From the IMG/VR virus record IMGVR_UViG_3300025096_000008, positions 23,183-87,182 of that record: a stretch of 64,000 nucleotides of DNA, one strand, 5' to 3'. The position numbers and the translations under genes are program-made. The notes beneath the pieces were generated by a model that worked only from the letters and a program-made list of their open reading frames with translations, ran no database searches and was not told the origin of the DNA. Positions 2,444 to 63,833 of the stretch are shown here, piece after piece (positions within the stretch are counted from its first letter, which is position 1; the number at the start of each line of letters is the position of its first letter). This stretch comes from a virus.

Positions 2444-3052
2444 ATGAAAATGTTAAAGCAAGATAAATACTGGGGGAGCACTAGTGATATCCGCCTAGAC
2501 GACAGCAGCTCGAACGAGAATGAGGTATCTTCCTTAAACAACAGGATCTATTTCTACTCAGAAGTAACTCGACCGGAATGTCTGGCACTAAACAAAAACA
2601 TCCAGACCCTATCTGATGCTATGTGCACAAATGGTCATAACTACAATATTCCAGTTCCCCCAATCCGGTTACATATCAGTTCCTATGGAGGCTCTGTCTT
2701 CGCCGGACTTTCATCGGTGGATTATATAATGGCTTCCAAGGCACCGATCCACTCGGTAGTAGAGGGATGTGCAGCATCAGCAGCAACACTGATGAGTGTC
2801 GTGGCTGAAAAGCGATACATCCATAAGAATTCATTTATGCTCATTCATCAGCTATCTTCTGGTATGTGGGGCAAATTTGAAGAGCTCAAGGACAGCATGG
2901 AGAATTGTGAGATTTTGATGCAGACCATCAGGGAGATCTACAACAAACACACTAACATTCCAAAAAAGAAGCTTGACGAGATTCTCAAGCACGATTTGTG
3001 GTTCGATGCTGACACTTGTCTAAAGTATGGCTTAGTTGACGAAATTATTTGA
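2444..3052 (+). CDS. clpP: ClpP-like protease
   Basis: ISSYGGSV, AASAAT (Ser), MLIHQ (His), HDLWF, YGLVDEI. Confidence 0.88.
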   Translation: MKMLKQDKYWGSTSDIRLDDSSSNENEVSSLNNRIYFYSEVTRPECLALNKNIQTLSDAMCTNGHNYNIPVPPIRLHISSYGGSVFAGLSSVDYIMASKAPIHSVVEGCAASAATLMSVVAEKRYIHKNSFMLIHQLSSGMWGKFEELKDSMENCEILMQTIREIYNKHTNIPKKKLDEILKHDLWFDADTCLKYGLVDEII

Positions 3053-5647: not shown

Positions 5648-7504
5648 ATGGAATTAGCAAGTGAGATTTTGAGCAATATTACCGTTCACATGAAATATGC
5701 TCGGTACTTAGAGGATAAAAAGAGAAGGGAAACTTGGGATGAGCTAGTCACTAGGAACAAGCATATGCACCAGAAAAAGTATCCTCACCTCTATGATGAT
5801 ATAGAAGAAGCTTACAAGCTAGTTCACGACAAGAAGGTGTTGCCTTCTATGAGGTCGCTACAGTTCAGCGGCAAGCCTATTGAGATTTCGCCTAACCGAA
5901 TCTATAACTGTGCTTATTTACCGGTAGATGATTGGCGAGCATTTGGGGAGATCTTGTTTCTCCTCCTCGGCGGAACGGGAGTAGGGTATAGTGTACAATC
6001 CCATCATGTAGAAGAGCTCCCAGAGATTAAAAAGCCAAATCCAGGCAAAATAAAGAGATACCTAGTTAGCGATAGCATTGAGGGCTGGGCTGACTCCGTG
6101 AAAGTTCTTATGAAGTCTTACTTTCGAGGAACTGCCACCTTAGATTTCGATTTCAGTGACATTCGCCCCAAAGGCTCCCAACTGATTACCAGTGGCGGCA
6201 AGGCACCTGGACCAGAGCCACTCAAAAACTGCTTGAGACACATCAAAAGTATCTTGAATGAAAAGTCTGACGGAGATCAGCTTCGACCGATTGAGGTTCA
6301 CGATATCGTTTGCTATATTGCTGATGCCGTATTGGCAGGCGGCATCCGTCGAGCAGCTTTGATATCCCTGTTCTCTGCAGATGATGACGAGATGATAGCT
6401 AGCAAATACGGCAACTGGTATGAGCTCAATCCACAACGAGGGAGAGCAAACAATAGTGCTGTTCTTTTACGACACAAGGTGGACGAAGAGTTCTTTTTCC
6501 AGTTGTGGGAGAAGATAAAGTTAAGCAACTCGGGCGAGCCGGGGATATACTTTTCTAACGATAAAGATTATGGCACCAACCCGTGCTGTGAAATTGCACT
6601 AAGACCGTTTCAGTTCTGTAACTTGTGTGAGGTTAATGCTTCAACGGTAGAGGGGCAGGAAGACTTGGAAGCTAGGATTCGTGCTGCTACCCTTATCGGC
6701 ACCCTACAGGCAGGATATACTAACTTTCATTATTTAAGATCTGTATGGCAACGAACCACCGAGAGAGAGGCTCTTCTGGGCATTAGTCTGACCGGCATTG
6801 CTTCGAATAAGATACAAGACTTGGATGTGAAGGCAGCAGCAAAAGCGGCACGACAAAAGAACAAAGAGGTGTCGTCATTGATTGGAATCAAGAGTGCCGC
6901 CAGGGTCACCACCATCAAGCCAGCGGGAACAACTTCGCTAGCACTTGGTTGTAGTTCTGGGATCCATGCTTGGCATAGCCAGCATTATATTCGCCGGATA
7001 AGAGTAGGAAAAAACGAGCCAATATATGGATATCTACTAAAGAACCATCCAGAGCTTGTTGAGGATGAGTATTTTCGACCTCACGACACAGCCGTCATCT
7101 CAGTCCCACAGAAGGCACCAGAAGGAGCAACATTGAGGGACGAGAGTGCCCTAGATCTCCTCCAGAGGATCAAGTGGTTTTCCAAAAATTGGATAAAGCC
7201 GGGACACTCTAAAGGACAAAACACCCATAATATCTCTGCTACAATATCGATCAAAGATAACGAATGGGAAACCGTCGGTCGCTGGATGTGGGACAACCGA
7301 GGATGCTACAACGGGATTTCTTGCTTGCCGTATGATGGAGGTTCTTATGTTCAAGAGCCGTTCGAAGAATGTTCGGAGGAAACCTACGAGGAGATGATGA
7401 AGCATCTTAAGGATGTTGATCTCACTCAGATCAGTGAAACGGAAGACAATACTGATCTCAAAGGTGAGCTAGCATGTGCCGGCGGAAGCTGTGAGATAAA
7501 ATAA
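5648..7504 (+). CDS. nrdJ: class II (adenosylcobalamin-dependent) ribonucleotide reductase
   Basis: YNC, GTGVG, RRAALI, TNPCCEI, FCNL, TIKPAGT, C-terminal CAGGSCEI; no beta subunit nearby. Confidence 0.9.
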   Translation: MELASEILSNITVHMKYARYLEDKKRRETWDELVTRNKHMHQKKYPHLYDDIEEAYKLVHDKKVLPSMRSLQFSGKPIEISPNRIYNCAYLPVDDWRAFGEILFLLLGGTGVGYSVQSHHVEELPEIKKPNPGKIKRYLVSDSIEGWADSVKVLMKSYFRGTATLDFDFSDIRPKGSQLITSGGKAPGPEPLKNCLRHIKSILNEKSDGDQLRPIEVHDIVCYIADAVLAGGIRRAALISLFSADDDEMIASKYGNWYELNPQRGRANNSAVLLRHKVDEEFFFQLWEKIKLSNSGEPGIYFSNDKDYGTNPCCEIALRPFQFCNLCEVNASTVEGQEDLEARIRAATLIGTLQAGYTNFHYLRSVWQRTTEREALLGISLTGIASNKIQDLDVKAAAKAARQKNKEVSSLIGIKSAARVTTIKPAGTTSLALGCSSGIHAWHSQHYIRRIRVGKNEPIYGYLLKNHPELVEDEYFRPHDTAVISVPQKAPEGATLRDESALDLLQRIKWFSKNWIKPGHSKGQNTHNISATISIKDNEWETVGRWMWDNRGCYNGISCLPYDGGSYVQEPFEECSEETYEEMMKHLKDVDLTQISETEDNTDLKGELACAGGSCEIK

Positions 7505-7507
7505 AGC

Positions 7508-7536
7508 TTGACACGGCAAAAAGAGTATGCTATACT
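7508..7536 (+). promoter_or_regulatory. sigma70-type promoter
   Basis: TTGACA-17-TATACT with extended TG. Confidence 0.85.
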
Positions 7537-7562
7537 TAGACAATAAACAAAAAGGAGGCTAT

Positions 7563-7841
7563 ATGTCTAATGGTAATTTGAAGGTAGTTGATGGTGGAAA
7601 TGACGTGGAGAAGGAGAACAGAATTGTCGATTACATTAAATCACTTTCTGCCTTGGAAACCGAAATGGAGCCATATAAGGAACAGAAGCGAGATCTAAAA
7701 CAAAACTATGTGGAGAACGGATGGCTCTCCAAGGAAGAGATCTCTGCCGCTGTTAAAGCTTATCGACTGATGAAGTCGGAAGTTGATCTTGAGCAAATGA
7801 GAGATTTCTTTGAGCTCTATTCTAAGACGAAGGTGTGCTGA
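7563..7841 (+). CDS. small helical DNA-binding protein (T4 DsbA/GapR-like)
   Basis: YIKSLSALETEM...KRDLK....G....I..AVK pattern; AGGAGG RBS. Confidence 0.5.
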   Translation: MSNGNLKVVDGGNDVEKENRIVDYIKSLSALETEMEPYKEQKRDLKQNYVENGWLSKEEISAAVKAYRLMKSEVDLEQMRDFFELYSKTKVC

Positions 7842-8116
7842 TGAAATATTCCCCCTTCAATAGGCATTTGATGCTAGAGGAGTGTGAAGTCAATGAGGAG
7901 ACTCCTATTTCGAAGGTACTGGTACCGGACGACTATAAAGCTGTTAAAGATTTTGGCACTTATAGGGTTGTGGGCAAGTCTATGGACAGCTCTCCAGTAT
8001 TTGCCGTTAATTCTAGAGTTATTGTAGAAGAGTCTATGGTAAGGTCAGTAAGTTTAGGCGACAAAAAGATATTCATAATCCCAGAGAACTTTGTTGTTCT
8101 TTATGAAAATGAATGA
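7841..8116 (+). CDS. GroES-like co-chaperonin 1
   Basis: SPFNRHLML, mobile-loop-like KVLVPD, C-terminal FIIPENFVV; about 91 aa. Confidence 0.7.
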   Translation: MKYSPFNRHLMLEECEVNEETPISKVLVPDDYKAVKDFGTYRVVGKSMDSSPVFAVNSRVIVEESMVRSVSLGDKKIFIIPENFVVLYENE

Positions 8117-8913
8117 AGAATAAAATATACCAATATGATAGAATAATAATTGGGGGATCCTTGGCATCGTTGTTATGTGGGTATTGTTATAATATTCCCG
8201 TAATCTATACGATGCCGAGGATACCTTTATTTTTTGAGACTGATGAGCGACTAGGCAGCAAGAGTCAGCTATGGAGAGAGTTGTCCGCAACCATGTCTCT
8301 GTCTGGCTTGCTCCCGATGGAAAACAAGACTCAAAGCATCCGAATTGAGGACGGCACCCTCAAAGCCTTTACAGAAGATCCGGTATACGGTCATTTCGCC
8401 TTTGATGATATCATTGTCTTTGACGACACCGAGATTCATGGCTGGGATGGGAAGATTGAAAAAGAAAAGAAGCTTATGGTGCTTGACTGGATGAACGATA
8501 GAGGGAGCTCCCCTCACGATATAGACTTCCTCGAAACTCCAGATGACTTTGTGAGAGATGTTCACTTTTATTTGTCTGATAGGATTTTCGGAAACCCACA
8601 GAAGAAGAAAGACATTCTTTCTATCTCGTGGCTAACAGAGCAGCAGATCAGGAGTGTGGAATACACCGACACTTATGCCAGGTTCAAGGTATTGGAAATG
8701 ATGACGGATGCTGGAATCAAAGGAAGAAAGAACGGCATAGATAAGAAGACTGGCAGAGAAAAGAACCTCTCTATAAAGTTAGAGACAGCCAGCAGAGATG
8801 TCCTTCCTGTATTTAGAGAGCCATTCTCCGAGGAGCAGCTTTTGAGGCTATACGAGAAAGAACCCTCCCAGAACAAATATATCAGGACACTAAGAAAGTA
8901 TCTGAATGGATGA
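8113..8913 (+). CDS. hypothetical protein with a degenerate Rossmann-type N-terminus
   Basis: YDRIIIGGSLASL resembles a dinucleotide-binding beta-alpha start. Confidence 0.45.
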   Translation: MKNKIYQYDRIIIGGSLASLLCGYCYNIPVIYTMPRIPLFFETDERLGSKSQLWRELSATMSLSGLLPMENKTQSIRIEDGTLKAFTEDPVYGHFAFDDIIVFDDTEIHGWDGKIEKEKKLMVLDWMNDRGSSPHDIDFLETPDDFVRDVHFYLSDRIFGNPQKKKDILSISWLTEQQIRSVEYTDTYARFKVLEMMTDAGIKGRKNGIDKKTGREKNLSIKLETASRDVLPVFREPFSEEQLLRLYEKEPSQNKYIRTLRKYLNG

Positions 8914-9850
8914 GATCAAGCCAATTGGCGACACAACATACTTTACCTTAGCGGGGATCATTCCCGTCGCTGGGGAGAAGCTGGATTTTGGCTTCCCGTG
9001 GCACGACTCCTTGATGCCCATTGGAAAGGATTATCTTGCTGTAGAACGAAGTGTCTATGAGTGTGCCATGGCTGGCTGTGAGAGTATCTGGATAGTGTGC
9101 CATCGAGAGATGCAGCCCCTAATAAGACATCGGATAGGAGATTGGATTGTTGATCCGGTTTGGACAGCAGCAAACAGAAGGAAGTTTTCATTCTTTGGCG
9201 GAGGCAAGCAGCACGAAAAGACGATACCCATCTTCTATGTCCCCATCCACCCAAAGGACAGAGACAAGCGAGACTGCTTGGCTTGGAGCGTCATCTACGG
9301 TTCGATGAGAGCATTCTCCGTATCTAAGATCATAAGTAAGTGGACTGTCCCAGACAAATACTATGTTTCTTTTCCGTATGGAGTTCACAGTGTCCGAAGC
9401 CTTAGAAAACATAGGAAGGCTATATCCGACCAGAAGAAGAAGTTTTACATCTCTCACAACGGCAAGACGGTCAAGGATGGAGAGTATCTGTCTTTCACAT
9501 TTGATGTGGAGGACTGGAAGAATTTCCGGAGGATAATAAGAAGCGAAGGCACCGGCATCTATGAGCCAGGATCTTATTTTGATGATGAGGAGAAGACTCT
9601 CAAGGGAGACAAGCTTCCGCCAGAGGAACGATACAGTGCCCGCCACTTCCCGCTAGAGAAAGTATTTGGGCAGCTAGACACGACAGGTCACACCATTATG
9701 GAAACAGACAGGTATTTCAACATCGGGAGTTGGGAGAACTATTGTACATATATGGCTGACGAATATTCAAAATATGTAATAAAACCAAAAATGATACTTA
9801 AATATCACGAACACAATCCTTTCGGCGAGGATACAAAAGAAGAAGTTTAG
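8906..9850 (+). CDS. sugar-phosphate nucleotidyltransferase-like (GT-A fold) protein
   Basis: GIIPVAG...SLMPIG, AGCESIWIV, YFNIGSWENY. Confidence 0.55.
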   Translation: MDEIKPIGDTTYFTLAGIIPVAGEKLDFGFPWHDSLMPIGKDYLAVERSVYECAMAGCESIWIVCHREMQPLIRHRIGDWIVDPVWTAANRRKFSFFGGGKQHEKTIPIFYVPIHPKDRDKRDCLAWSVIYGSMRAFSVSKIISKWTVPDKYYVSFPYGVHSVRSLRKHRKAISDQKKKFYISHNGKTVKDGEYLSFTFDVEDWKNFRRIIRSEGTGIYEPGSYFDDEEKTLKGDKLPPEERYSARHFPLEKVFGQLDTTGHTIMETDRYFNIGSWENYCTYMADEYSKYVIKPKMILKYHEHNPFGEDTKEEV

Positions 9851-9851
9851 G

Positions 9852-9860
9852 ACTACTTAT
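9852..9860 (+). promoter_or_regulatory. ACTA(T/C)TTAT putative late promoter
   Basis: Recurs at more than 12 intergenic sites; here upstream of the tagged 9880 gene. Confidence 0.6.
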
Positions 9861-9879
9861 TAGGACTAAGGGAGAGAAA

Positions 9880-10527
9880 ATGAAAAAGATTATCAATGAA
9901 TGGCGACAATACTTGAACGAGTCATCTCTGTCTCGTGTATACCAGCATATTGGAGAGCATGACACGGCTATACTCACGGGCTTCCGTGGAGATCCATCTG
10001 ATACCTCCAGGTGTGTAGAAGGCTCAGCAGAGTATGAGGAAGAGGTAGAGGAAGTGAAGAAGGGTAGGGCGAAAAGCTCGAACATGCTTCGGAACCGAGA
10101 TGTGAAGGCTTCCTTATTGGCTAGCGGCTACGGAGTTACCAAAGTGGACGGCTCTTACATCGAAGACTTTGATACACCCTCGGCAATGGAAGTGTCGGAA
10201 GATAGCTTTTTCGTAGTCAACCTCAAAGATGATCCTTCTTTCGCTTCCAGAGTTGAGGAGATTGGTAAGAAGTTCTGCCAAGACTCCGTGTTAGTAATAC
10301 CAAAAGGCGGCAAGGGAGCATACTTGCTTGGCACTAACAACAGCGAATTCCCTGGGCTCGGACAACAAATATCCGTAGGGGATATAAAAATGGGCAAAGA
10401 GTCGGAATTTATGACCCGAGTCGGCAAACGTCCATTTACTTTCGCTGAAGGGCTGGAGACATATAGTGATCTCTCCAAGAACGAGCGAATGGCTGTAAAG
10501 AACATCGCCAAGAAAATTCTCTCGTAA
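9880..10527 (+). CDS. putative SAM lyase (T3 gp0.3-like) with an N-terminal capsid-targeting-like tag
   Basis: AILTGFR / NMLRNRDV / GSYIE / SEDSFFV / KFCQDSVLV match, in order, the T3 SAMase blocks as recalled; N-terminus MKKIINEWRQYLNE. Confidence 0.6.
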   Translation: MKKIINEWRQYLNESSLSRVYQHIGEHDTAILTGFRGDPSDTSRCVEGSAEYEEEVEEVKKGRAKSSNMLRNRDVKASLLASGYGVTKVDGSYIEDFDTPSAMEVSEDSFFVVNLKDDPSFASRVEEIGKKFCQDSVLVIPKGGKGAYLLGTNNSEFPGLGQQISVGDIKMGKESEFMTRVGKRPFTFAEGLETYSDLSKNERMAVKNIAKKILS

Positions 10528-10588
10528 AATCAACAACTTACAAATACTCAACAAATCTCTTGACAAGAGATTTGTGATATGATATACT
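10528..10588 (+). promoter_or_regulatory. IHF-consensus site plus sigma70 promoter of the polymerase gene
   Basis: AATCAACAACTTA (WATCAANNNNTTR) at 10528-10540; TTGACA 10560-10565, 17 bp, TATACT. Confidence 0.75.
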
Positions 10589-10622
10589 CCTATAACTAAC
10601 CCATTCCCAGGAGCTTTTTGAT

Positions 10623-13600
10623 ATGGAAAGAAAAGAATCAACGATTCCGTTCGTAGGATTACATGCCCACAGTGTCGCCAGTGTGTTTGATGGTCTTGGA
10701 TACCCGCAAGAACACATGGACTTTGCTTATGAGAACGGTATGGATGCCCTAGCTCTAACTGATCACGGCAATATGAACGGGCTGGCATATCAAGTGCTTC
10801 ATGCTAAAAAGATGAAAGAACAAGGTAAAGACTTTAAGCCAATTTTTGGTGTTGAGGCATACTTTATTCCGTCCGTATCGGAATGGCGAGATGACTATGA
10901 TCGAATCAAGAAAGAGCGAGCCGAGAGCAAAAAGCGGCAATCCAAGTTGAACGATGATGTATCCGGTGCGACTGTCGAAGATGAGGAAGAGACAAAGAAG
11001 GCTATCAAGAGCATCCTGAATAGGCGACGCCACTTGATTCTATTAGCCCAGAACCAAAAAGGGCTAAATAATATTTTTCAACTAATCAGCAAGAGCTACA
11101 AGGAAGAGAATTATTATCGCTTTCCTCGCCTAGATTTTGATATGCTACAGGAACACAACGAGGGGGTCATTGCTGCCTCCGCTTGCCTAGGTGGTGTATA
11201 TGCCGGAGACTTCTGGGAGAACCGAGAGGAAGGCTCTGAGGCAGTCAGAGAGGCAATGAGAAAGACAACATCGAGGATGGTGGACATCTTCGGCGACAGA
11301 TGGTATGCCGAGCTCCAATGGAACAGAATTGATGAACAGCATCAGCTAAACAAACATATTATCGAGGTAGCAAAAGAGTTTGATGTGAGCCTAATTAGTA
11401 CCGCTGATAGTCACTATCCAAGCCCCGATGTGTGGAAGCAGCGAGAGGTATACAAAAAGATCGGATGGCTAAAAAAAGGCGATGATGGCTCGGGAATCCC
11501 CGAGACAATCGACGAAATGGATTACCAGCTTTATCCCAAGAATGGTGATGAAATGTGGGCATCTTACAAGGGGTACTCAAAGGATTGTGGATATGAATAC
11601 AATGATAATCTGGTACGCGACTCTATTGCCGAGACATATAACATTGCCCATGAGAGAATATCTAGGTTTTTACCAGATAACCAGGTACGGCTTCCAAGTT
11701 TTGTGGTCCCCGAAGGTAAAACGCCAGCAGATACTCTCATTGAGTGTTCCACTGAGGGGCTCCGAGAAGCCGGTCTTGATAAGAAAGATGTTTATGTAAA
11801 TCGCCTAAACGAAGAGCTTGAGGTAATCAACACTAACGAGTTCTCTCAATACTTTCTTACGATGAAAGCAATTGCAGATATCGCCTCATCCAAGCAGCTC
11901 GTAGGTCCAGCCCGTGGTAGTGCGGCAGGCTCTCTTGTCGCTTATGTTCTGGGTATAACCCAAGTGGATCCGATAAAGTATGATCTTCTGTTCGAGCGTT
12001 TTATGACGAGGAACCAGAAGGATGTAGGCTTTCCCGACATCGACTATGATGTTTCAGATCCTTTTGAACTGAAAGAGGCTCTGATAGAAGAGTGGGGCGA
12101 CGATAAAGTTGTGCCCATCTCAAACTGGAACACCCTTCAACTAAAATCTCTGATAAAAGACATCAGCAAGATGCAGGGCATTCCCTTCAAGGAAGTGAAC
12201 TTAGTTACCAGTGTGATGATGAGAGAGGCAACCCCTTTGGCTAAAAAGGCGAAGGGCATGACGGCAGGCATGTATATTCCAGGCTTCGAGGAAGTGAAAG
12301 AATACAGCCCTACATTACAGGAGTTCTTTCGAAAGTATCCCGATGTAGAGACTAATGTTGATGTACTGTACGGTCAAGTGAGAAGCTGCTCTCGTCATGC
12401 TGGCGGAGTAGTTGTTGGAGACAATCTAGACCAGCATATGCCGATCATCAATAGTGGTGGTGTGAAACAGACTCCATGGAGCGAAGGGCAGAATGTCCGG
12501 CATCTAGAGCCCATGGGCTTCATTAAGTTTGATATCTTGGGACTAGCATCGCTTCGAATGATGGAGTCAGCAATCGTCCATGTTCTCAAGCGACACAAGG
12601 GTAATCCTGAACCCACTTTTGATGATGTGAAAGAATTCTACGACAAGAATCTTCACCCAACAGTTATCAACTTGGATGACCAGAATGTATACAAGAACAT
12701 CTTCGGGAGAGGAAAATGGGCAGGCATCTTCCAGTTTACTGAAGACGGAGCCCAAAGGTTTTGTAAGCATGTCAAGCCAAACAACATCGTTGATCTCTCT
12801 GCTATCACGAGTATCTATCGACCTGGACCTCTCTCCGCCAAAGTGGACAAGCATTACATCCAAGCAAAGAACAATCCTGATGAGATTGAATATGCTCACG
12901 AGATTGTCGAGGAAGTAACCAAGGAGACTTACGGGTTTCTTATCTTCCAGGAGCAAATAGCATTGCTAGCCCATCGCCTTGGTCACGACATCAGTCTAGA
13001 CGAAGGGAATATGCTTCGTAAGATTTTGACCAAGCGAGGCTCTGGGAAAGACAAACTCAAAGAGGATATCCACAATCGGTTCATCACGGGATGTTTAGAG
13101 AAAGACATGAGAGCAGACAAGGCTCAAAGACTATGGGATACATTTGAGTTCTTCTCAGGGTATGGATTCAACAAGTCTCATGCCTTGAGCTACAGCATCC
13201 TATCGTTTCAGTGTGCTTGGCTGCTGAACTACTATCCTTCCGAGTGGATGGCAGCATTCCTAGACAAGGAGCCAGAAGCACGAAAAGAGAAGGCTATCAA
13301 CATAGCACGAAGTATGGGATTCGATATTGAGAAGCTCAATGTAAATACTAGCGGCTTCACTTGGGAAATCAACGAAGATGGCAACACACTAATCCAGCCG
13401 CTTTCGAGCATCAAGGGCTTGGGGAGTACAGCCATCAAAGAGATAATGACCCACCGACCATTCAATACGGTGGAGGATTTCCTCTTCAACGATAGGATGC
13501 TCTACTCAAAGGTAAACAAGAAGAGCATCGATGCACTTGCTCGTTCTCAGGCGATGAACGAACTTATTGACGATAGGTTTAGTGGGATGAGGCACTTCTG

Positions 13601-14057
13601 GATGGCGATAGCCAATGATCGTCCGAGAAAAGAGAAGAATCTTGTAGAGAACATAGAGAAGTATGTTAGTGAAGGAGACTTCACCCCAGAGGAGAAGCTT
13701 GACTACCTTATCGACTTGACTGGGTTATTCCCATTCGAGCTTGTTATGACCAAGGAAGTAGAGCGACGATTGGAAGAGGTTGCTGTCCCTCCCATCAGCG
13801 AGTATGATCCGGGGCTAGGAATTGTGTGGTTTATTCCCAGGAAAGTAGTGGAGAAAAAGACGAAGCACGGCAAGGATTGGTGGCTCATAGAAGCCATAGA
13901 CAAGAACAGCACTGTGACAGCAATAAAGTGCTGGGGAGTCAGGAAGGGCTCTGACAGTGTACAGCTAAACCGCCCCTACATGGCACGACTAGATCACGAT
14001 CCGGTATGGGGATTTAGCACAAGAAGCATCAGGCATTCTTTTAGAATGCTAGGGTAA
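10623..14057 (+). CDS. dnaE: family C DNA polymerase (Pol III alpha-like)
   Basis: PHP domain HAHS..DG, TDHGNM; RGSAAGSLVAY; FPDIDYD; HAGGVV; KFDILGL; YGFNKSH. Confidence 0.97.
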   Translation: MERKESTIPFVGLHAHSVASVFDGLGYPQEHMDFAYENGMDALALTDHGNMNGLAYQVLHAKKMKEQGKDFKPIFGVEAYFIPSVSEWRDDYDRIKKERAESKKRQSKLNDDVSGATVEDEEETKKAIKSILNRRRHLILLAQNQKGLNNIFQLISKSYKEENYYRFPRLDFDMLQEHNEGVIAASACLGGVYAGDFWENREEGSEAVREAMRKTTSRMVDIFGDRWYAELQWNRIDEQHQLNKHIIEVAKEFDVSLISTADSHYPSPDVWKQREVYKKIGWLKKGDDGSGIPETIDEMDYQLYPKNGDEMWASYKGYSKDCGYEYNDNLVRDSIAETYNIAHERISRFLPDNQVRLPSFVVPEGKTPADTLIECSTEGLREAGLDKKDVYVNRLNEELEVINTNEFSQYFLTMKAIADIASSKQLVGPARGSAAGSLVAYVLGITQVDPIKYDLLFERFMTRNQKDVGFPDIDYDVSDPFELKEALIEEWGDDKVVPISNWNTLQLKSLIKDISKMQGIPFKEVNLVTSVMMREATPLAKKAKGMTAGMYIPGFEEVKEYSPTLQEFFRKYPDVETNVDVLYGQVRSCSRHAGGVVVGDNLDQHMPIINSGGVKQTPWSEGQNVRHLEPMGFIKFDILGLASLRMMESAIVHVLKRHKGNPEPTFDDVKEFYDKNLHPTVINLDDQNVYKNIFGRGKWAGIFQFTEDGAQRFCKHVKPNNIVDLSAITSIYRPGPLSAKVDKHYIQAKNNPDEIEYAHEIVEEVTKETYGFLIFQEQIALLAHRLGHDISLDEGNMLRKILTKRGSGKDKLKEDIHNRFITGCLEKDMRADKAQRLWDTFEFFSGYGFNKSHALSYSILSFQCAWLLNYYPSEWMAAFLDKEPEARKEKAINIARSMGFDIEKLNVNTSGFTWEINEDGNTLIQPLSSIKGLGSTAIKEIMTHRPFNTVEDFLFNDRMLYSKVNKKSIDALARSQAMNELIDDRFSGMRHFWMAIANDRPRKEKNLVENIEKYVSEGDFTPEEKLDYLIDLTGLFPFELVMTKEVERRLEEVAVPPISEYDPGLGIVWFIPRKVVEKKTKHGKDWWLIEAIDKNSTVTAIKCWGVRKGSDSVQLNRPYMARLDHDPVWGFSTRSIRHSFRMLG

Positions 14058-14117
14058 AAAAACATTAATATTGTTTCTCTCCCGTATTTTATACTTGAGA
14101 GATAAAAGGAGTAAATT

Positions 14118-15290: not shown

Positions 15291-15770
15291 ATGGATAAGA
15301 ATACAAAAAAGGTTATGTTTAGCAGTAAAGATATGAGTTGGGAAACTCCTCAAAAGTTGTTCGATAAGCTAGACGAGGAGTTCAGCTTTGATTTGGATCC
15401 CTGTGCCTCCAACGACAATGCTAAATGTAAGAACTTCTTTACGGAGGACGACGACGGACTAGCACAGTCTTGGGGACCGAACAAGTCAATATTTGTCAAC
15501 CCACCATATGGCAAGGCGATAAAGAGCTGGGTAAAAAAGGCTTACGACGAGAGTCGAAAAGAAAAAACTACTGTCGTAATGCTAATACCTTCTCGAACTG
15601 ATACATCGTATTGGCACGAGTATTGTATGAAAGCCGCCGAGATCTACTTCATAAAAGGGCGAATCAAATTTAGCGATAGCAGTATGTCAGCCCCATTTCC
15701 GTCTGCAGTTGTTGTTTTTCGGGACCACTGGAAGCAACAAAACCCGCTGATGGGAGCGATCACCAGGTAA
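15291..15770 (+). CDS. phage N6-adenine DNA methyltransferase (phage Dam family)
   Basis: WETPQ, FDLDPCA, DGL..SW, FVNPPY, LIPSRTDT.YWH, GRIKF, APFPS. Confidence 0.9.
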   Translation: MDKNTKKVMFSSKDMSWETPQKLFDKLDEEFSFDLDPCASNDNAKCKNFFTEDDDGLAQSWGPNKSIFVNPPYGKAIKSWVKKAYDESRKEKTTVVMLIPSRTDTSYWHEYCMKAAEIYFIKGRIKFSDSSMSAPFPSAVVVFRDHWKQQNPLMGAITR

Positions 15771-36237: not shown

Positions 36238-36561
36238 ATGAGAATAATAATTGAAGGTAACGGCTCTTTATCAAAGCAGCAGTTACAGAAAATGTCTCCC
36301 GAGGAAGTGAAGGCTTACTTCTCGTCTATAGAATCAGAGGAAGAGCCCAGGGTAGGTCCACCGCTTAAAGGCTCTCCCGACTTCAAGAACTCCGGCAAAA
36401 CCGTCCCCAGCAATGAAGATGATCGTATCCGCCAAGCCGTCCAGTATGTACTCCAGGATCCATCCGTCATGGACATGATAAAGAAGCACCTTTCTGGTGT
36501 GGCTGGAGCATCCCCCTTGGAACCAACGAAGCCAGGCAGGAAGAAGCCTGCTAGCGAGTAA
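36238..36561 (+). CDS. hypothetical late protein
   Basis: ACTATTTAT at 36224 just before the ATG; no SD. Confidence 0.55.
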   Translation: MRIIIEGNGSLSKQQLQKMSPEEVKAYFSSIESEEEPRVGPPLKGSPDFKNSGKTVPSNEDDRIRQAVQYVLQDPSVMDMIKKHLSGVAGASPLEPTKPGRKKPASE

Positions 36562-36566
36562 GAGCT

Positions 36567-37766
36567 ATGAAGCTATTGTTTGAGAACTGGCGAAGCCACC
36601 TAGAAGAAGGAATAAGCGATATCGTCTATCACGGCACCAGCCTAGGTAGACTATCGGATATCGCCAAAGGCAACCGACTTATGACATCTGGTGTCTTCGG
36701 TGCTGATGCTGAAGAGATCATCGGCAAGGGAAAGTTCTACTTTCTCTCTACGGCACGGTCCCCATCAGCCTTCAAGCATGGATATCCTTTGGTCAAGGAC
36801 GGCAAAACTCGTATCACTCTAGACGGCAAGAAGATCGGACAGAAGTATTCGGGTGGACCAATAGATTACTGGCGGGATCGAACTAAAGGCGGCAAGTCAG
36901 AGATGGAAGATAGGATCATAACAGACGATCCTTGGATAGAGAATGCTGCTGATTACATTACAGAGATAGTCGTCTACCTTCCGATCCTCAGAGGAAAGGC
37001 AACTGATTCAGACAGCATCCTAGGATCAATTGCATCGGACAAGCCGACAAAATATGAATACATTCCCAACCGAGATATTGGATTTGCCGATATCAAAGCT
37101 CTAAAAGAGGTAAGCGATTTTGCTCAATCCCACGGGATCCCTCTAAAGATAATACCGACAGAAGAAAAAGAAAGTGAGTTCTATATGAACAACCAGCCCT
37201 CAGCAGTATCCCACGACGAATTCGATAAAATGAGAAAAGAGTTAGACATAGACCCAGAGGAAAAAACACATCGTGGGAAGGAGCGAGATGCCTTCCACAT
37301 AAAGCTAAGGAATGCGTCATCCTATTCTCTTCTTCCTCCACTAATGGAACTGACCAAGATGCTGGATGCCGGCAACTTTAACTCATCCTCATCCGAGAAA
37401 TGGTTTCCAACGAAAGAGGACATGCTGGAGGTCAAAACAGATTTGTACGAGTGGTCCAAGAAGCCAGACTTTGAGGAGTATCCACTACCAGAGTATGATG
37501 AGCCCGAAAAGCGAGAGCTACGAAGGAAGTTCCTGGAAGGGCAAGTGATAGTTACCAAGGAAGACATCGATGATGTTGAGGAAAGGCTCACTCGGTTTAA
37601 AAACGAGGCAGCCAGTGTGTTCGGTACCGACTTTCTAAGTGCTAGGACAGATCCTCGCCGAAGACCCTTCATTCAATTCTTTACGAAATACATGAGAAGC
37701 AAAAAGCTTGAGAATGTCACTGAACTAGTCAAGCATCTAGAGCAAGAGCTCAGAAAAACTATTTAG
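36567..37766 (+). CDS. ADP-ribosyltransferase-like protein with a capsid-targeting-like tag
   Basis: MKLLFENWRSHLEE, then YHGTS...FLSTARS...EMEDRI. Confidence 0.5.
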   Translation: MKLLFENWRSHLEEGISDIVYHGTSLGRLSDIAKGNRLMTSGVFGADAEEIIGKGKFYFLSTARSPSAFKHGYPLVKDGKTRITLDGKKIGQKYSGGPIDYWRDRTKGGKSEMEDRIITDDPWIENAADYITEIVVYLPILRGKATDSDSILGSIASDKPTKYEYIPNRDIGFADIKALKEVSDFAQSHGIPLKIIPTEEKESEFYMNNQPSAVSHDEFDKMRKELDIDPEEKTHRGKERDAFHIKLRNASSYSLLPPLMELTKMLDAGNFNSSSSEKWFPTKEDMLEVKTDLYEWSKKPDFEEYPLPEYDEPEKRELRRKFLEGQVIVTKEDIDDVEERLTRFKNEAASVFGTDFLSARTDPRRRPFIQFFTKYMRSKKLENVTELVKHLEQELRKTI

Positions 37767-41918: not shown

Positions 41919-42908
41919 ATGATTAAACAAGGAGACTCACTGGAGTTGCTAAAGGAGATCGAAAGTGATACTGTATCAACAGCTTATTTCGATCCACCCT
42001 TCAACACTGGTCGAAACTTTGAGCTAGATTCTTCGTCTGAAGGAAAAAAGGTAAAATTTTCAGACAAGTGGTCTAGCGACGAAGCTTATCAGAATTTCAT
42101 AAGCCCGGTTGTAGAACAAATCAAACGAGTTTTGAAGCCAGAAGGATCTTTGTTTTTTCATATCTCTGCTGCAGAGATGTATATTCCAGAGAAGGTATGC
42201 CGAGCTCACTTTGACAATGTTAAGCCTATATTTTGGAAAAAGTCACGCTCCAAAAACAATGTAAAGAAAAAGCTTGGTGCAACGATTGATATTATATTTC
42301 AGTGCTCGAAGACGAAAAATCCAAAATTTAACCCCGTGTATCAACCACTCGATGCTTATTATCTAGAGCACTCCTACCGGAACAAGGACGATGTTGGGTA
42401 TTATGCACTTGGTCATTTAGTTAACGACAGGACGAGGAAGGTGAACCTGGAAGAAGATGCCAATAAGCCGGAGGCTAATAGGAGGATATATTCTTACACT
42501 GCTAACGGCAGAACATGGATGCCCGATAATGGATGGCGCCTTTCAGAGCCTGACTTGCTTAAATTAATCGACCAAGGTCGTGTCCATTTCCCGGCTAGCG
42601 AAAAGAGAGGAAATCTCTATCGAAAGATCTACAAGCATGAATCCAAAGGGAAGCCCTGTACAGATCTGTGGGACGATATTCACTCCATTGCACAGGGAAC
42701 TGAGAGATATTATCCGACACAAAAGCCAGATAAGCTTCTGGAGAGAATCATAGAAATGTCTTCTGATTTGGGCGAAGTAGTTTTAGATCCAATGGCTGGA
42801 TCGGGAACGACGCCAGCGATGGCTAAAAAGCTTGGAAGGAAGTATATTGCCTTCGACATAAGCGAAGAAGCAGTTCATATAATGAGGACGAAGAGACAAC
42901 TCGCTTAA
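41919..42908 (+). CDS. beta-class N4/N6 DNA methyltransferase
   Basis: GDSLE, DPPF, DLWDDI, YPTQKP, VLDPMAGSGTT. Confidence 0.92.
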   Translation: MIKQGDSLELLKEIESDTVSTAYFDPPFNTGRNFELDSSSEGKKVKFSDKWSSDEAYQNFISPVVEQIKRVLKPEGSLFFHISAAEMYIPEKVCRAHFDNVKPIFWKKSRSKNNVKKKLGATIDIIFQCSKTKNPKFNPVYQPLDAYYLEHSYRNKDDVGYYALGHLVNDRTRKVNLEEDANKPEANRRIYSYTANGRTWMPDNGWRLSEPDLLKLIDQGRVHFPASEKRGNLYRKIYKHESKGKPCTDLWDDIHSIAQGTERYYPTQKPDKLLERIIEMSSDLGEVVLDPMAGSGTTPAMAKKLGRKYIAFDISEEAVHIMRTKRQLA

Positions 42909-57073: not shown

Positions 57074-58003
57074 ATGGAGGATTCCTTGACAGATGTGAGC
57101 CAAAGATTTAAGGACTATGGTGAAGAGCATTGCTGGCAGTATGAAATCCGTCTTCGGAATCTAGAAGAGGATATATCGCTAGCTGGGCTTAAGCCAGGAG
57201 ATGCTGAGTCTCTTCATGTTTCCGATTTCAAATTTGAATATGTTGATAAGTCGGAAAAAGATAAGTGTGCAGAGATAAGTGACTTCATAAAGAAGCACGA
57301 ATGGCTCGGCAAGCTTCCGAACCGTCCTACACAACGATTTACAGCCCGGCTCAAGGAAGGTAATGTCCTTGCTGGGGTTATCATTATGGCTGTTCCAAAT
57401 ACCTTCTCTCACCTCCTTGGGAAAGAGAATATCGGCATCGAAAAGTTAATCTCTCGTGGCGCCTGTATATCATGGTCGCCTAAGAGCCTAGGTTCTTGGC
57501 TCGTAACGAAGTCTATCAAGTGGATGGTACAGAATACTGATTTTCGATACTTCACAGCATACTCCGATCCGGAAGCAAAAGAATTAGGGACAATCTATCA
57601 AGCTTGTAACTTTATTTATCTTGGCAAAGGCTCCGGAGTAGCAAAGCAGTATTTCGATCCGGAGAATCCCAAGCAGGGGTGGTTCAGCGGCAGAGAATTC
57701 AGGAAGAAATCAAAGTATTATAGATATGCCAAGGAGGTGGGTATCAGCAAAGAACAATGGGCACTATGGATGAAGAAGTATAGCCCAGACTGGACATTGG
57801 TTCCTCCAGCGGTAAAGACTATGGTAAAGGAAAGAGAGAGAGTGTATCGAGACAGTTGCCATGTTCGAGAGGTAGTTTCGAAGCATAAATATTGTTATAT
57901 CCTCGGGAAAACAAAAGCCGAGACAAAGAGCTTGAGAAAATTATTTATCGAGAAAAATCCAGATAAAATTAACCTTCCTTATCCTAAGAATCGTGGAGAG
58001 TGA
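57074..58003 (+). CDS. Mom-family (GNAT fold) DNA modification protein
   Basis: FIKKHEW, LAGVI, LISR, SWLV..SIK, AYSDP...GTIYQACNFIYLG. Confidence 0.75.
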   Translation: MEDSLTDVSQRFKDYGEEHCWQYEIRLRNLEEDISLAGLKPGDAESLHVSDFKFEYVDKSEKDKCAEISDFIKKHEWLGKLPNRPTQRFTARLKEGNVLAGVIIMAVPNTFSHLLGKENIGIEKLISRGACISWSPKSLGSWLVTKSIKWMVQNTDFRYFTAYSDPEAKELGTIYQACNFIYLGKGSGVAKQYFDPENPKQGWFSGREFRKKSKYYRYAKEVGISKEQWALWMKKYSPDWTLVPPAVKTMVKERERVYRDSCHVREVVSKHKYCYILGKTKAETKSLRKLFIEKNPDKINLPYPKNRGE

Positions 58004-59484: not shown

Positions 59485-59814
59485 ATGAAAATAACAAAAA
59501 GCCAATTGAAGCAAATTGTCAAAGAAGAAATATCCCGAGTGTTTGATGAGAGCGATGTTCGAATCGATGAATTCGGCTTGGGAAGGTCTATCAAAGGTGC
59601 CGCAGCCTCGCTCAAGGCGAAAGGCATGGATATGGTCAAGGGAACCGGTAAGTTGGCTCAGACAACCCAGGCACAAAAACAGATTAAGATGATGGTTAAG
59701 GATATTATAAAATCCGGAGATACCCAAGAAGCAAAGTCGATGGCTAATCATTTGAAAGCATTGACAGACGAGCTGGCGGCTTTCGCTGGAAAAGACGACA
59801 TGCCTTATCAGTAG
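59485..59814 (+). CDS. putative internal head protein
   Basis: MKITKSQLKQIVKEEI N-terminus; late motif at 59406. Confidence 0.55.
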   Translation: MKITKSQLKQIVKEEISRVFDESDVRIDEFGLGRSIKGAAASLKAKGMDMVKGTGKLAQTTQAQKQIKMMVKDIIKSGDTQEAKSMANHLKALTDELAAFAGKDDMPYQ

Positions 59815-59823
59815 GAGAAAAAA

Positions 59824-60297
59824 ATGAAAATAACAGAAAAAGTACTTCGTAAGATGATTAGAGAAGAAGTAGAGGTCGGCGAAACGGCTGAAGAAGCATA
59901 TGAAGCCAACTTGAACGATGAGAAAATCATCCGTTTTTTCGAAGAAGGTATTAACCAAGAAGAGCAGCTTGCAGAAATTAGCTCGCTGGATGAGGCGGCA
60001 TTACTAGCTCAGATCCCTAGGCTCGTTTCCGCTCTTAAGAGCAACAAAATGATTCAAGCTTTGATAGGTAAGATCGCAGAAGATCCTAAAGCTGCTGCTC
60101 AGTTTCTTTCCACTATGGCACAAATGGTCGGCATCGATACTGATAAGACTTTTACCGGTAGACAGAAATCAGTAGCTAAGAGCCTTGACAATACCACTCC
60201 CCAATCCGAGCCGGCGGCAGACGATAAAGACGGATTAGTTGAAGGCTTAATTAGAGAAGTGCTGAATGAAATATTCGGTAATAAAGATAAAAAATAA
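59824..60297 (+). CDS. putative internal head protein
   Basis: MKITEKVLRKMIREEV N-terminus; LIREVLNE near the C-terminus. Confidence 0.55.
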   Translation: MKITEKVLRKMIREEVEVGETAEEAYEANLNDEKIIRFFEEGINQEEQLAEISSLDEAALLAQIPRLVSALKSNKMIQALIGKIAEDPKAAAQFLSTMAQMVGIDTDKTFTGRQKSVAKSLDNTTPQSEPAADDKDGLVEGLIREVLNEIFGNKDKK

Positions 60298-63047: not shown

Positions 63048-63833
63048 ATGTCATATTTTTTTAAAGAATGGAAGAAACTCATCACTGAAAAGGCGGATCC
63101 GAAAGATATCGACCTTTCAAGCTTCGAAGTAAAGGACATTCTAAGTCCAGATGTCTGGGAAGATGATGATTTTATAAAATCCGAAGTAAAAAACAACCTT
63201 AAAACGATAGCAGAGGACTTTTTGGATGGCTTAGACATCAAAAAGAGCCTTATTGATGATATTGTCATTACTGGAAGTGGCGCCAACTACAATTGGAGCA
63301 AGTTTTCCGATGTTGACTTACATATTCTCTTAGATTTCTCGAAAATTGATGAAAATACCGATCTTGTGAAGAAAATGTTTGATAAAGCAAGAATAAATTG
63401 GAATAGAACCCACGATATCAATATTGGGAAGCACGAAGTCGAAATATATGCCCAAGACACGAATGAGCCACATGTTTCGACTGGTGTTTACTCTGTTTTA
63501 GACGATAAATGGGTAGTAAAGCCAAATAAGCTCCAAGTGACCCTACAAAAAGACGATATAAAGAAGAAAGCGGCACAACTAATGGAAGAAATCGACGAAA
63601 TAGAGAAAGAGGCTGCCAGTAGCCCAGGAAAAACATACGATTCTATCATTTCTTTGAAGAAGAAAATACAAAAAATGCGAAGATGTGGACTCGAAAAGGG
63701 AGGTGAGTTTTCGGTCGAGAACCTTGCTTTTAAAGTTCTTCGAAGAAATGGTTATTTACAAAAATTGAGTGATATGAAACTAACTGCTTACGATAGCCTG
63801 CTTAGTTTAGAGGAATTAGAGAAAGATGATTAA
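63048..63833 (+). CDS. Pol-beta superfamily nucleotidyltransferase with a capsid-targeting-like tag
   Basis: ITGSGANYNW...SDVDLH, VEIY; N-terminus MSYFFKEWKKLITE; ACTATTTAT at 63033. Confidence 0.75.
   Translation: MSYFFKEWKKLITEKADPKDIDLSSFEVKDILSPDVWEDDDFIKSEVKNNLKTIAEDFLDGLDIKKSLIDDIVITGSGANYNWSKFSDVDLHILLDFSKIDENTDLVKKMFDKARINWNRTHDINIGKHEVEIYAQDTNEPHVSTGVYSVLDDKWVVKPNKLQVTLQKDDIKKKAAQLMEEIDEIEKEAASSPGKTYDSIISLKKKIQKMRRCGLEKGGEFSVENLAFKVLRRNGYLQKLSDMKLTAYDSLLSLEELEKDD

Follow-up and report, generated by a model that had tools for sequence, protein, structure and literature searches.

A candidate packaged SAM lyase: a T3-type enzyme domain behind a T4-style leader in an 87-kb viral record

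Can a phage bring an enzyme that degrades S-adenosylmethionine (SAM) into the host cell ready-made, together with its DNA? The question is raised by an open reading frame (ORF) at 9880-10527 of the stretch analysed here (the window), 64,000 nucleotides that comprise bases 23183-87182 of an 87-kb record from a marine T4-type phage (IMG/VR record IMGVR_UViG_3300025096_000008; estimated completeness, 48%). In T3-like phages, SAM lyase is a known counter-defence that is expressed early; the internal proteins known from T4-type phages are injected and inhibit type IV restriction without catalysis. Our analysis suggests that the ORF encodes a T3-type SAM lyase precursor with a T4-style leader that would be packaged, cleaved and injected, and for this chain as a whole we lean towards acceptance. 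If true, an injected, pre-made SAM lyase would unite both ideas in a catalytic effector that lowers the SAM pool before phage transcription. An earlier interpretation made from the letters of the window (the sequence-only reading) had proposed such an enzyme, tagged for the capsid and made late. The enzyme family and the T4-type delivery logic are both already known; in the literature searched, we found no report of a virion-packaged SAM lyase, nor of the combination of a SAM-degrading cargo with a capsid-targeting leader.

The protein and its parts are as follows; every gene of the window lies on the + strand.

9880-10527, + strand: SAM-lyase-family ORF, 215 residues, ATG start, beginning MKKIINEWRQYLNE
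9880-9921, + strand: leader, candidate capsid-targeting propeptide, residues 1-14 (MKKIINEWRQYLNE), ending L-N-E
9922-10524, + strand: predicted mature SAM-lyase-family protein, residues 15-215, 22.0 kDa, isoelectric point (pI) 5.26
9988-10065, + strand: acidic insertion, residues 37-62, between strand 1 and helix 1, opposite a gap in T3 in the hhalign alignment
10150-10284, + strand: core ligand-binding residues G91, Y93, E107, Q134 and D135, placed by hhalign alignment to T3

Fold, ligand-binding residues and substrate

The protein matches the Pfam family S-AdoMet_lyase (PF23780) over residues 61-166 with 43.5 bits against a cut-off of 28 (E 3.8e-11), and this domain is present in all 120 homologs listed. 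The ORF also matches phrog_2226, the T3 gp0.3 family. When a profile of 118 homologs was compared with T3 gp0.3 by hhalign (probability 78.8%, E 1.7e-5), five blocks paired in the same order, AILTGFR with VLVSAFR, NMLRNRDV with NMSRHRHM, GSYIE with GCYRE, SEDSFFV with EEKTVRV, and CQDSVLV with EQDCVLV. Sequence identity is only 15-19%. The sequence-only reading had pointed to five motif blocks and named T3 counterparts for them; all five are present and align with exactly those T3 blocks.

Structures of known relatives are available for T3 gp0.3 SAM lyase (SAMase; PDB 8BB1 and 7OCK) and for Svi3-3 (PDB 6ZM9); this type of fold has a PII-like beta-alpha core and, in T3, a beta-barrel. We built an AlphaFold2 model on the 118-homolog alignment (mean predicted local distance difference test, pLDDT, 89.3), and the top Foldseek matches of this model were T3 SAM lyase 8bb1 and 7ock, with a probability of 1.0. 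Residues 21-190 of the model superposed on T3 SAM lyase with a Z score of 13.7 and a root-mean-square deviation of 3.0 Å over 132 of 147 residues. The structural ranking placed T3 SAM lyase first (Z 13.7 and 13.6), followed by Svi3-3 (Z 7.0 and 6.5), and unrelated folds began at 5.5. A structural comparison with T3 SAMase and Svi3-3 had been proposed as a check of identity, and the predicted structure matched both (Z 13.7 and Z 7.0, respectively).

The residues that contact the ligand in the known enzymes are retained. In Svi3-3, SAM is bound by Gly56, Tyr58, Glu69, Gln104 and Glu105 (PMC7877911), and E68, Q94 and D95 are the active-site residues that have been mutated in T3 SAM lyase (T3 preprint). 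G91, Y93, E107, Q134 and D135 are the equivalents of Svi3-3 G56, Y58, E69, Q104 and E105, and E107, Q134 and D135 correspond to T3 E68, Q94 and D95. Among 118 sequences, G91 and Q134 are conserved in 100%, E107 in 99% and D135 in 97%; Y93 is found in 76%, with an aromatic residue at this position in 97%. The SAM-lyase identity put forward from the letters is supported by an above-cut-off Pfam match, the predicted fold and conserved ligand-binding residues. To judge from the model, the product of ORF 9880-10527 almost certainly has a SAM-lyase fold. Membership of the SAM-lyase family is established as far as sequence and predicted fold permit, and from this we infer the enzymatic activity.

Several elements set the protein apart from T3 gp0.3. 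T3 gp0.3 lacks the 14-residue leader ending in L-x-E, the 26-residue acidic insertion and two helices, an extra one at the N-terminus (residues 15-26) and one at the C-terminus (residues 200-214). The insertion is weakly conserved (top-residue frequency, 0.30), with a pI of 4.1. The genetic setting also differs: T3 gp0.3 is the first early gene, located behind E. coli promoters at the genome end and devoid of a leader, whereas the SAM-lyase gene of the window lies mid-genome among replication genes and behind a CTAYTTAT motif. When bound to MetK, the T3 enzyme is a monomeric barrel (T3 preprint).

These additional elements (the N-terminal helix, the acidic insertion and the C-terminal helix) would also suit an enzyme that has the SAM-lyase fold and a different substrate, either a SAM derivative such as SAM-AMP, the second messenger of type III CRISPR systems, or a sulfonium compound of another kind. 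The role of the enzyme would in that case be anti-CRISPR or anti-signalling, whether or not it is packaged. The SAM-AMP lyases of type III CRISPR loci and the candidate AcrIIIB4 belong to the same superfamily, and their catalytic Glu and Gln, the only residues structurally common to both activities, are conserved in the present protein. However, SAM-AMP lyases differ in substrate and T-loop, and the G-x-Y motif and overall structure here follow T3 SAM lyase. This motif, which packs on the ribose and sulfonium in Svi3-3, is retained throughout the family, as the conservation at positions 91 (100%) and 93 (aromatic in 97%) indicates. T3 SAM lyase, whose SAM-lyase activity is proven, is by far the nearest structure (Z 13.7; no more than 7.0 for the others), and no SAM-AMP lyase chain occurred among the matches listed. 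We regard an altered substrate as quite unlikely.

The conservation of the ligand-binding residues bears on a further alternative, in which the protein is a head-internal protein whose SAM-lyase-derived domain has no catalytic relevance and serves as inert filler or as a stoichiometric inhibitor, for example of host SAM synthetase in the way that T3 SAMase acts on MetK. T3 SAMase retains part of its anti-BREX effect without catalysis, via MetK binding, and the known T4 internal proteins are binding inhibitors, not enzymes (PMC12373910). However, the N-terminal MetK-contact residues of T3 have no counterpart here, and the ligand-binding residues are invariant or nearly so across a set of over 100 diverse homologs, a pattern that speaks for selection on catalysis. 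A non-catalytic role therefore appears highly improbable.

Leader, junction and head proteins

Residues 1-14 lie outside the T3-like fold, and residues 1-20 all precede the portion that superposes on T3. The leader was modelled as a helix (residues 2-13) at lower confidence, with pLDDT above 70. The leader statistics come from 115 homologs, sampled from clusters at 90% and 50% identity. Between 3 and 63 residues (median, 16) come ahead of the conserved S-S-L-S-R, and leader conservation is 0.37 compared with about 0.6 in the domain. In contrast to this variability, the junction is nearly fixed: P3 is L, I, V or M in 96% of the homologs, P1 is E in 97%, and P1' is S, T or A in 96%. T4 gp21-type proteases cleave after Glu, and T4 head-internal proteins are recruited via a capsid targeting sequence (CTS) that stands at the N-terminus and is later cut off (PMC5694885). 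The T4 CTS is MKTYQEFIAE (PMC8442874), and several homolog N-termini are near-copies of it. N-termini of homologs are listed here, with a slash at the candidate cleavage point.

Paraglaciecola phage PANV1 homolog, N-terminus: MKTFSEFLGE/SGLSRI
Marine virus AG-345 homolog, N-terminus: MKTFKEFLEE/SSLSRI
Microcystis phage Mel-JY01 homolog, N-terminus: MQFKQYILGE/SSLSRI
Campylobacter phage CP220, Alishewanella phage Slicko01 and Lak-C1 homologs: longer leaders, same junction

Homologs thus occur in four cultured phages (PANV1, as gp48; Slicko01; CP220, as gp189; and Mel-JY01), which opens the idea to direct testing. Some family members have a larger layout: tandem duplications or extended proteins are included (P0136, P0164, P0216, P0231, P0255, P0260, P0264, P0253 and P0230), the extended ones with 160-220 residues ahead of the domain or several hundred after it. 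The longer homologs keep L-x-E/S-S-L-S-R internally, like cleaved polyproteins. The Mel-JY01 homolog (L005, 5010-6296) is a 428-residue fusion, and its C-terminal MKITREQLKEKIRIIVKRVLNE-AMK resembles a second class of leader described below.

The leader class of the window, I-I-N-E-W-R-x-x-L-x-E, heads two further ORFs with unrelated bodies.

36567-37766, + strand: second cargo, 399 residues, leader MKLLFENWRSHLEE/G, body with an ADP-ribosyltransferase-like fold
63048-63833, + strand: third cargo, 261 residues, leader MSYFFKEWKKLITE/K, with CTATTTAT upstream

In the family of ORF 36567, E14 is invariant, and members from other lineages are headed by T4-like leaders, for example MKTFQELVDLVTE/N and MKKFEELFELINE/A. 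The leader of this protein was modelled with pLDDT below 50. The best fold matches of the model were all ADP-ribosyltransferases of the Tpt1/KptA and DarT types and were weak (E 0.03-0.1, probability at most 0.98); the motifs YH[GY]T, STAR and SEMEDR are invariant. To go by its predicted fold, the product may be a packaged enzyme of the Alt type, a parallel with T4 that is only suggestive. ORF 63048 matches phrog_36119 and gave weak nucleotidyltransferase matches. In phage PANV1, at least three genes begin with a T4-CTS-like sequence; a 2H-phosphoesterase-like protein of 154 residues (HATIV...HISLA; L040, 1037-1501) starts with MKTYNQFILE/K, and gp45 (L004, 4216-4488) starts with MKTFSEYLTE/D. 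The leader class switches with the lineage in both the SAM-lyase family and the ORF 36567 family. Since unrelated proteins share a leader and other lineages substitute T4-like leaders, the leader follows the phage lineage and not the cargo. The second leader class was seen on two small proteins of the window, at 59485-59814 (MKITKSQLKQIVKEE...) and 59824-60297 (MKITEKVLRKMIREE...), and on SAM-lyase homologs of other lineages (P0082, P0112, P0128 and P0148).

The record also encodes T4-type head proteins. Its first 23 kb contain a T4-type structural module that includes tail sheath and tail tube. Its capsid protein matches Pfam Gp23 (E 1.6e-75) and adjoins a scaffold-like, acidic coiled-coil protein. 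Near its N-terminus the capsid protein carries AIVNKWEKTGLLEG, and T4 gp23 carries ELLNKWKPLLEG; its probable maturation site, ELLRE/SSS, mirrors the ELLRE/STT of T4 gp24, which begins MAKINELLRE/STT. The leader class of the window (IINEWRQYLNE) appears to resemble the L-L-N-K-W-K-x-L-L-E of T4-type capsid propeptides, a likeness that we infer from the letters.

The S77 protease (PF03420) was found in five of the five complete isolate genomes with a homolog, in a relative that is 87% complete (G006), and in two of the three AG-345 records. It was also found in a contig of the same lineage (G004), whose capsid protein is 57-71% identical and whose polymerase is 62% identical, and which carries the same leader and the same upstream motif as the SAM-lyase gene of the window. 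The protease was not found in eight relatives that are 14-43% complete (G001-G003, G005 and G007-G010), fragments that prove nothing, nor in the 66-kb AG-345-E15 record, which is also a fragment. A ClpP-like protease at 2444-3052, with matches to head-maturation-protease PHROGs, was weighed as the head protease. We set it aside in view of its place among replication genes and of the S77 protease present in the same lineage.

The capsid tag that the sequence-only reading had proposed gains plausibility from the variable leader, the near-invariant [LIV]-x-E/S junction and the CTS near-copies among homologs. The leader on unrelated cargo of the same phage and the co-occurrence with a T4-type capsid protein and a gp21-type protease point in the same direction. 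The leader is probably a cleaved targeting peptide.

As with T4 IPI, IPII, IPIII and Alt, a short N-terminal leader is common to unrelated proteins of one phage. The leader ends in hydrophobic-x-Glu, the cleavage pattern of gp21-type proteases; the capsid protein is of the gp23 type and has a scaffold-like protein beside it; the genes for the cargo vary and are dispersed; and the second tagged protein is, by weak fold matches, ADP-ribosyltransferase-like, as is Alt. There are also differences: the known internal proteins of T4 are small and basic and inhibit GmrSD nucleases by binding, whereas the cargo here is acidic and predicted to be a metabolite-degrading enzyme. The leader class I-I-N-E-W-R-x-x-L-x-E differs from MKTYQEFIAE of T4, and packaging by way of it is a prediction.

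Taken jointly, these data raise the tentative view, which we put at somewhat less than even, that marine and other T4-type phages, in a range that extends from Campylobacter phages to Lak megaphages, have a modular system of internal proteins that are enzymes. The N-terminal leaders would be interchangeable, matched to the scaffold and gp21-type protease of each lineage, and would bring catalytic anti-defence enzymes into the head, to be delivered with the DNA. SAM lyase and ADP-ribosyltransferase-like, 2H-phosphoesterase-like and nucleotidyltransferase-like proteins would be among the cargo, and the leader class x-I-N-E-W-R-x-x-L-x-E would mimic the N-K-W motif of the capsid protein's own propeptide. 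A packaged SAM lyase, if true, would also yield a sequence rule for injected effectors in uncultured phages, namely a variable leader followed by [LIV]-x-E and then by a conserved domain, where the genome encodes an S77 protease.

Upstream motif and apparent promoter classes

The sequence around the SAM-lyase gene bears on the timing of its expression.

9852-9860, + strand: ACTACTTAT, a CTAYTTAT copy and candidate late promoter element, 19 nt before the ATG
9870-9876, + strand: Shine-Dalgarno sequence GGGAGAG, read off the sequence
7508-7536, + strand: sigma70-like promoter TTGACA-17-TATACT, heading the gene string 7527-10527
10560-10588, + strand: sigma70-like promoter of the downstream DnaE-type polymerase gene

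ACTACTTAT comes immediately after the stop codon of the gene before it. Counted as a 9-mer with up to one mismatch, it is only weakly enriched (24 found against 15.2 expected). Its core, CTA[CT]TTAT, is present in the 87-kb record in 21 copies on the + strand versus 3 on the - strand, and 16 of the 21 are intergenic compared with 8.8% intergenic sequence (binomial P 1.8e-13). Copies lie 1-70 nt before structural or neighbouring genes at record positions 943, 2006 (scaffold), 4881 (neck), 10791 (tube), 12516 and 15839. At the same distance, they precede the tagged genes at window positions 9880, 59485 and 63048, as well as a small gene at 36238 that comes before the tagged gene at 36567.

The motif is kept upstream of the homolog in relatives of 49-62% identity (L006-L010, L014 and L015) and, as ACTATTTAT, in a contig of a metagenome-assembled genome (MAG; L048). 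In a metagenome contig from run X4, the upstream flank differs, and CTATTTAT still stands 22 nt before the ATG. TTGACA-N17-TATAAT promoters number 13 on the + strand versus 1 on the - strand and precede replication and accessory genes, so that the record has two apparent promoter classes. The distribution and retention of CTAYTTAT fit those of a putative late promoter. A search of the record with the PANV1 sigma factor gp56 found no late sigma factor. The single RNA run gave contigs over 7421-7732 and a scrap near 9058-9093 only and is uninformative on timing. The upstream motif named in the sequence-only reading is indeed present at 9852-9860, and its core is strongly non-random.

Packaging or cytoplasmic action

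We propose the following course of events for a packaged SAM lyase. The gene would be transcribed from its own CTAYTTAT element alongside the structural genes, possibly with additional read-through from the sigma70-like promoter. The leader would dock the precursor on the scaffolding core of the gp23-type prohead, and the gp21-type prohead protease would cleave after Glu14 (L-N-E/S-S-L), leaving the 22-kDa mature enzyme in the head. At the next infection, the enzyme would exit the head with the DNA and cleave SAM to methylthioadenosine and homoserine lactone. The loss of SAM would weaken SAM-dependent defences (type I restriction and BREX) ahead of phage gene expression. Because the leader is of the T4 head-loading kind, the enzyme is probably delivered ready-made with the DNA. 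Svi3-3 has a turnover of about 9.5 per second (PMC7877911), and at such a rate some tens of molecules might have an effect in a small marine cell.

Several points weigh against this proposal. The family alignment gave no match to PDB sequences even at E 1, and the T3 link therefore rests on Pfam, hhalign (78.8%) and the predicted fold. The S77 protease was not found in the 48%-complete record itself, and no virion proteome covering any homolog was found in the literature searched. With a pI of 5.26, the mature protein is acidic, whereas the internal proteins of T4 are basic. Some homologs with leaders of just 3-7 residues still retain [LI]-x-E, so that this junction could belong to the enzyme's own structure. 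A SAM-AMP-specific relative exists in another phage, which leaves the substrate uncertain. The gene is located in the replication module and is the last one behind the sigma70-like promoter at 7508-7536, with no terminator-like site on the + strand before 10560; early or middle expression is therefore possible. Of the late expression that had been proposed, the part that stands is the fit of the motif before scaffold, neck and tube genes to a late promoter, whereas, given this promoter and the lack of a terminator, expression need not be confined to the late period. Finally, the phage encodes the SAM-dependent enzymes Dam and N6_N4 MTase, and a Mom-like protein is also present.

15291-15770: Dam methylase gene
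41919-42908: N6_N4 MTase (DNA methylase) gene
57074-58003: Mom-like protein gene

Because the methyltransferases depend on SAM, a free SAM lyase in the producing cell would starve them. Sequestration of the lyase in proheads, or an inactive precursor, would ease this conflict; this is speculation.

The same observations can be read as those of an ordinary cytoplasmic SAM lyase, neither packaged nor cleaved, in which the N-terminal helix and L-x-E-S-S-L-S-R are part of the enzyme and serve stability, oligomerisation or partner binding. Such a protein would act within the host during the middle or late period of infection and might block host methylation or a SAM-dependent defence during replication, to name two examples. 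The position between the ribonucleotide reductase and DNA polymerase genes, behind a sigma70-like promoter without a terminator, suits this role, as does the acidity of the mature protein. The [LI]-x-E persists with leaders of 3-7 residues and is as conserved as the core residues; a helix is predicted for residues 2-13 (pLDDT above 70); and the N-terminal tail of T3 has a function of its own, MetK binding. However, the conserved domain follows leaders that differ freely in length and sequence, and several of these closely copy the T4 CTS; the same leader classes also occur on unrelated proteins of the same phage, switching with lineage rather than with cargo. Moreover, wherever the genome is complete, the family occurs only in phages with a gp21-type protease, and a free lyase would clash with the phage's own methyltransferases. 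We consider cytoplasmic action unlikely and favor the packaged precursor.

Virion-carried anti-restriction proteins are known from several systems, among them phage P1, whose Dar proteins are delivered with the DNA and act before transcription. The proposed packaged lyase would be like the Dar proteins in concept, without a relation in sequence or fold; the Dar proteins shield DNA from type I restriction in other ways, and their pathway of incorporation is a different one.

The SAM-lyase gene sits between the ribonucleotide reductase gene and the DNA polymerase gene. Upstream are genes for a gp32-like protein, a RecA-like protein, a 5'-3' exonuclease, a DnaB-like helicase and the class II ribonucleotide reductase; downstream are those for the DnaE-type polymerase, dUTPase and Dam methylase.

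10623-14057, + strand: DnaE-type DNA polymerase gene, directly after the SAM-lyase gene

A megablast search of positions 8000-14100 against phage records gave no match, and marine DNA runs from several studies contain the stretch. In run X4, a weak joint, with 26 letters on its short side, skips 9905-10623 and may represent a variant without the SAM-lyase gene.

The family is essentially viral, with three matches, all on short MAG contigs, among 185,579 prokaryote genomes. Ocean metagenomes are rich in it, with 528 clusters at 90% identity and 1067 at 50%. The three contigs (L048, L049 and L050) are labelled Deltaproteobacteria, Methanosarcinales and Chloroflexi and are probably mis-binned phage DNA.

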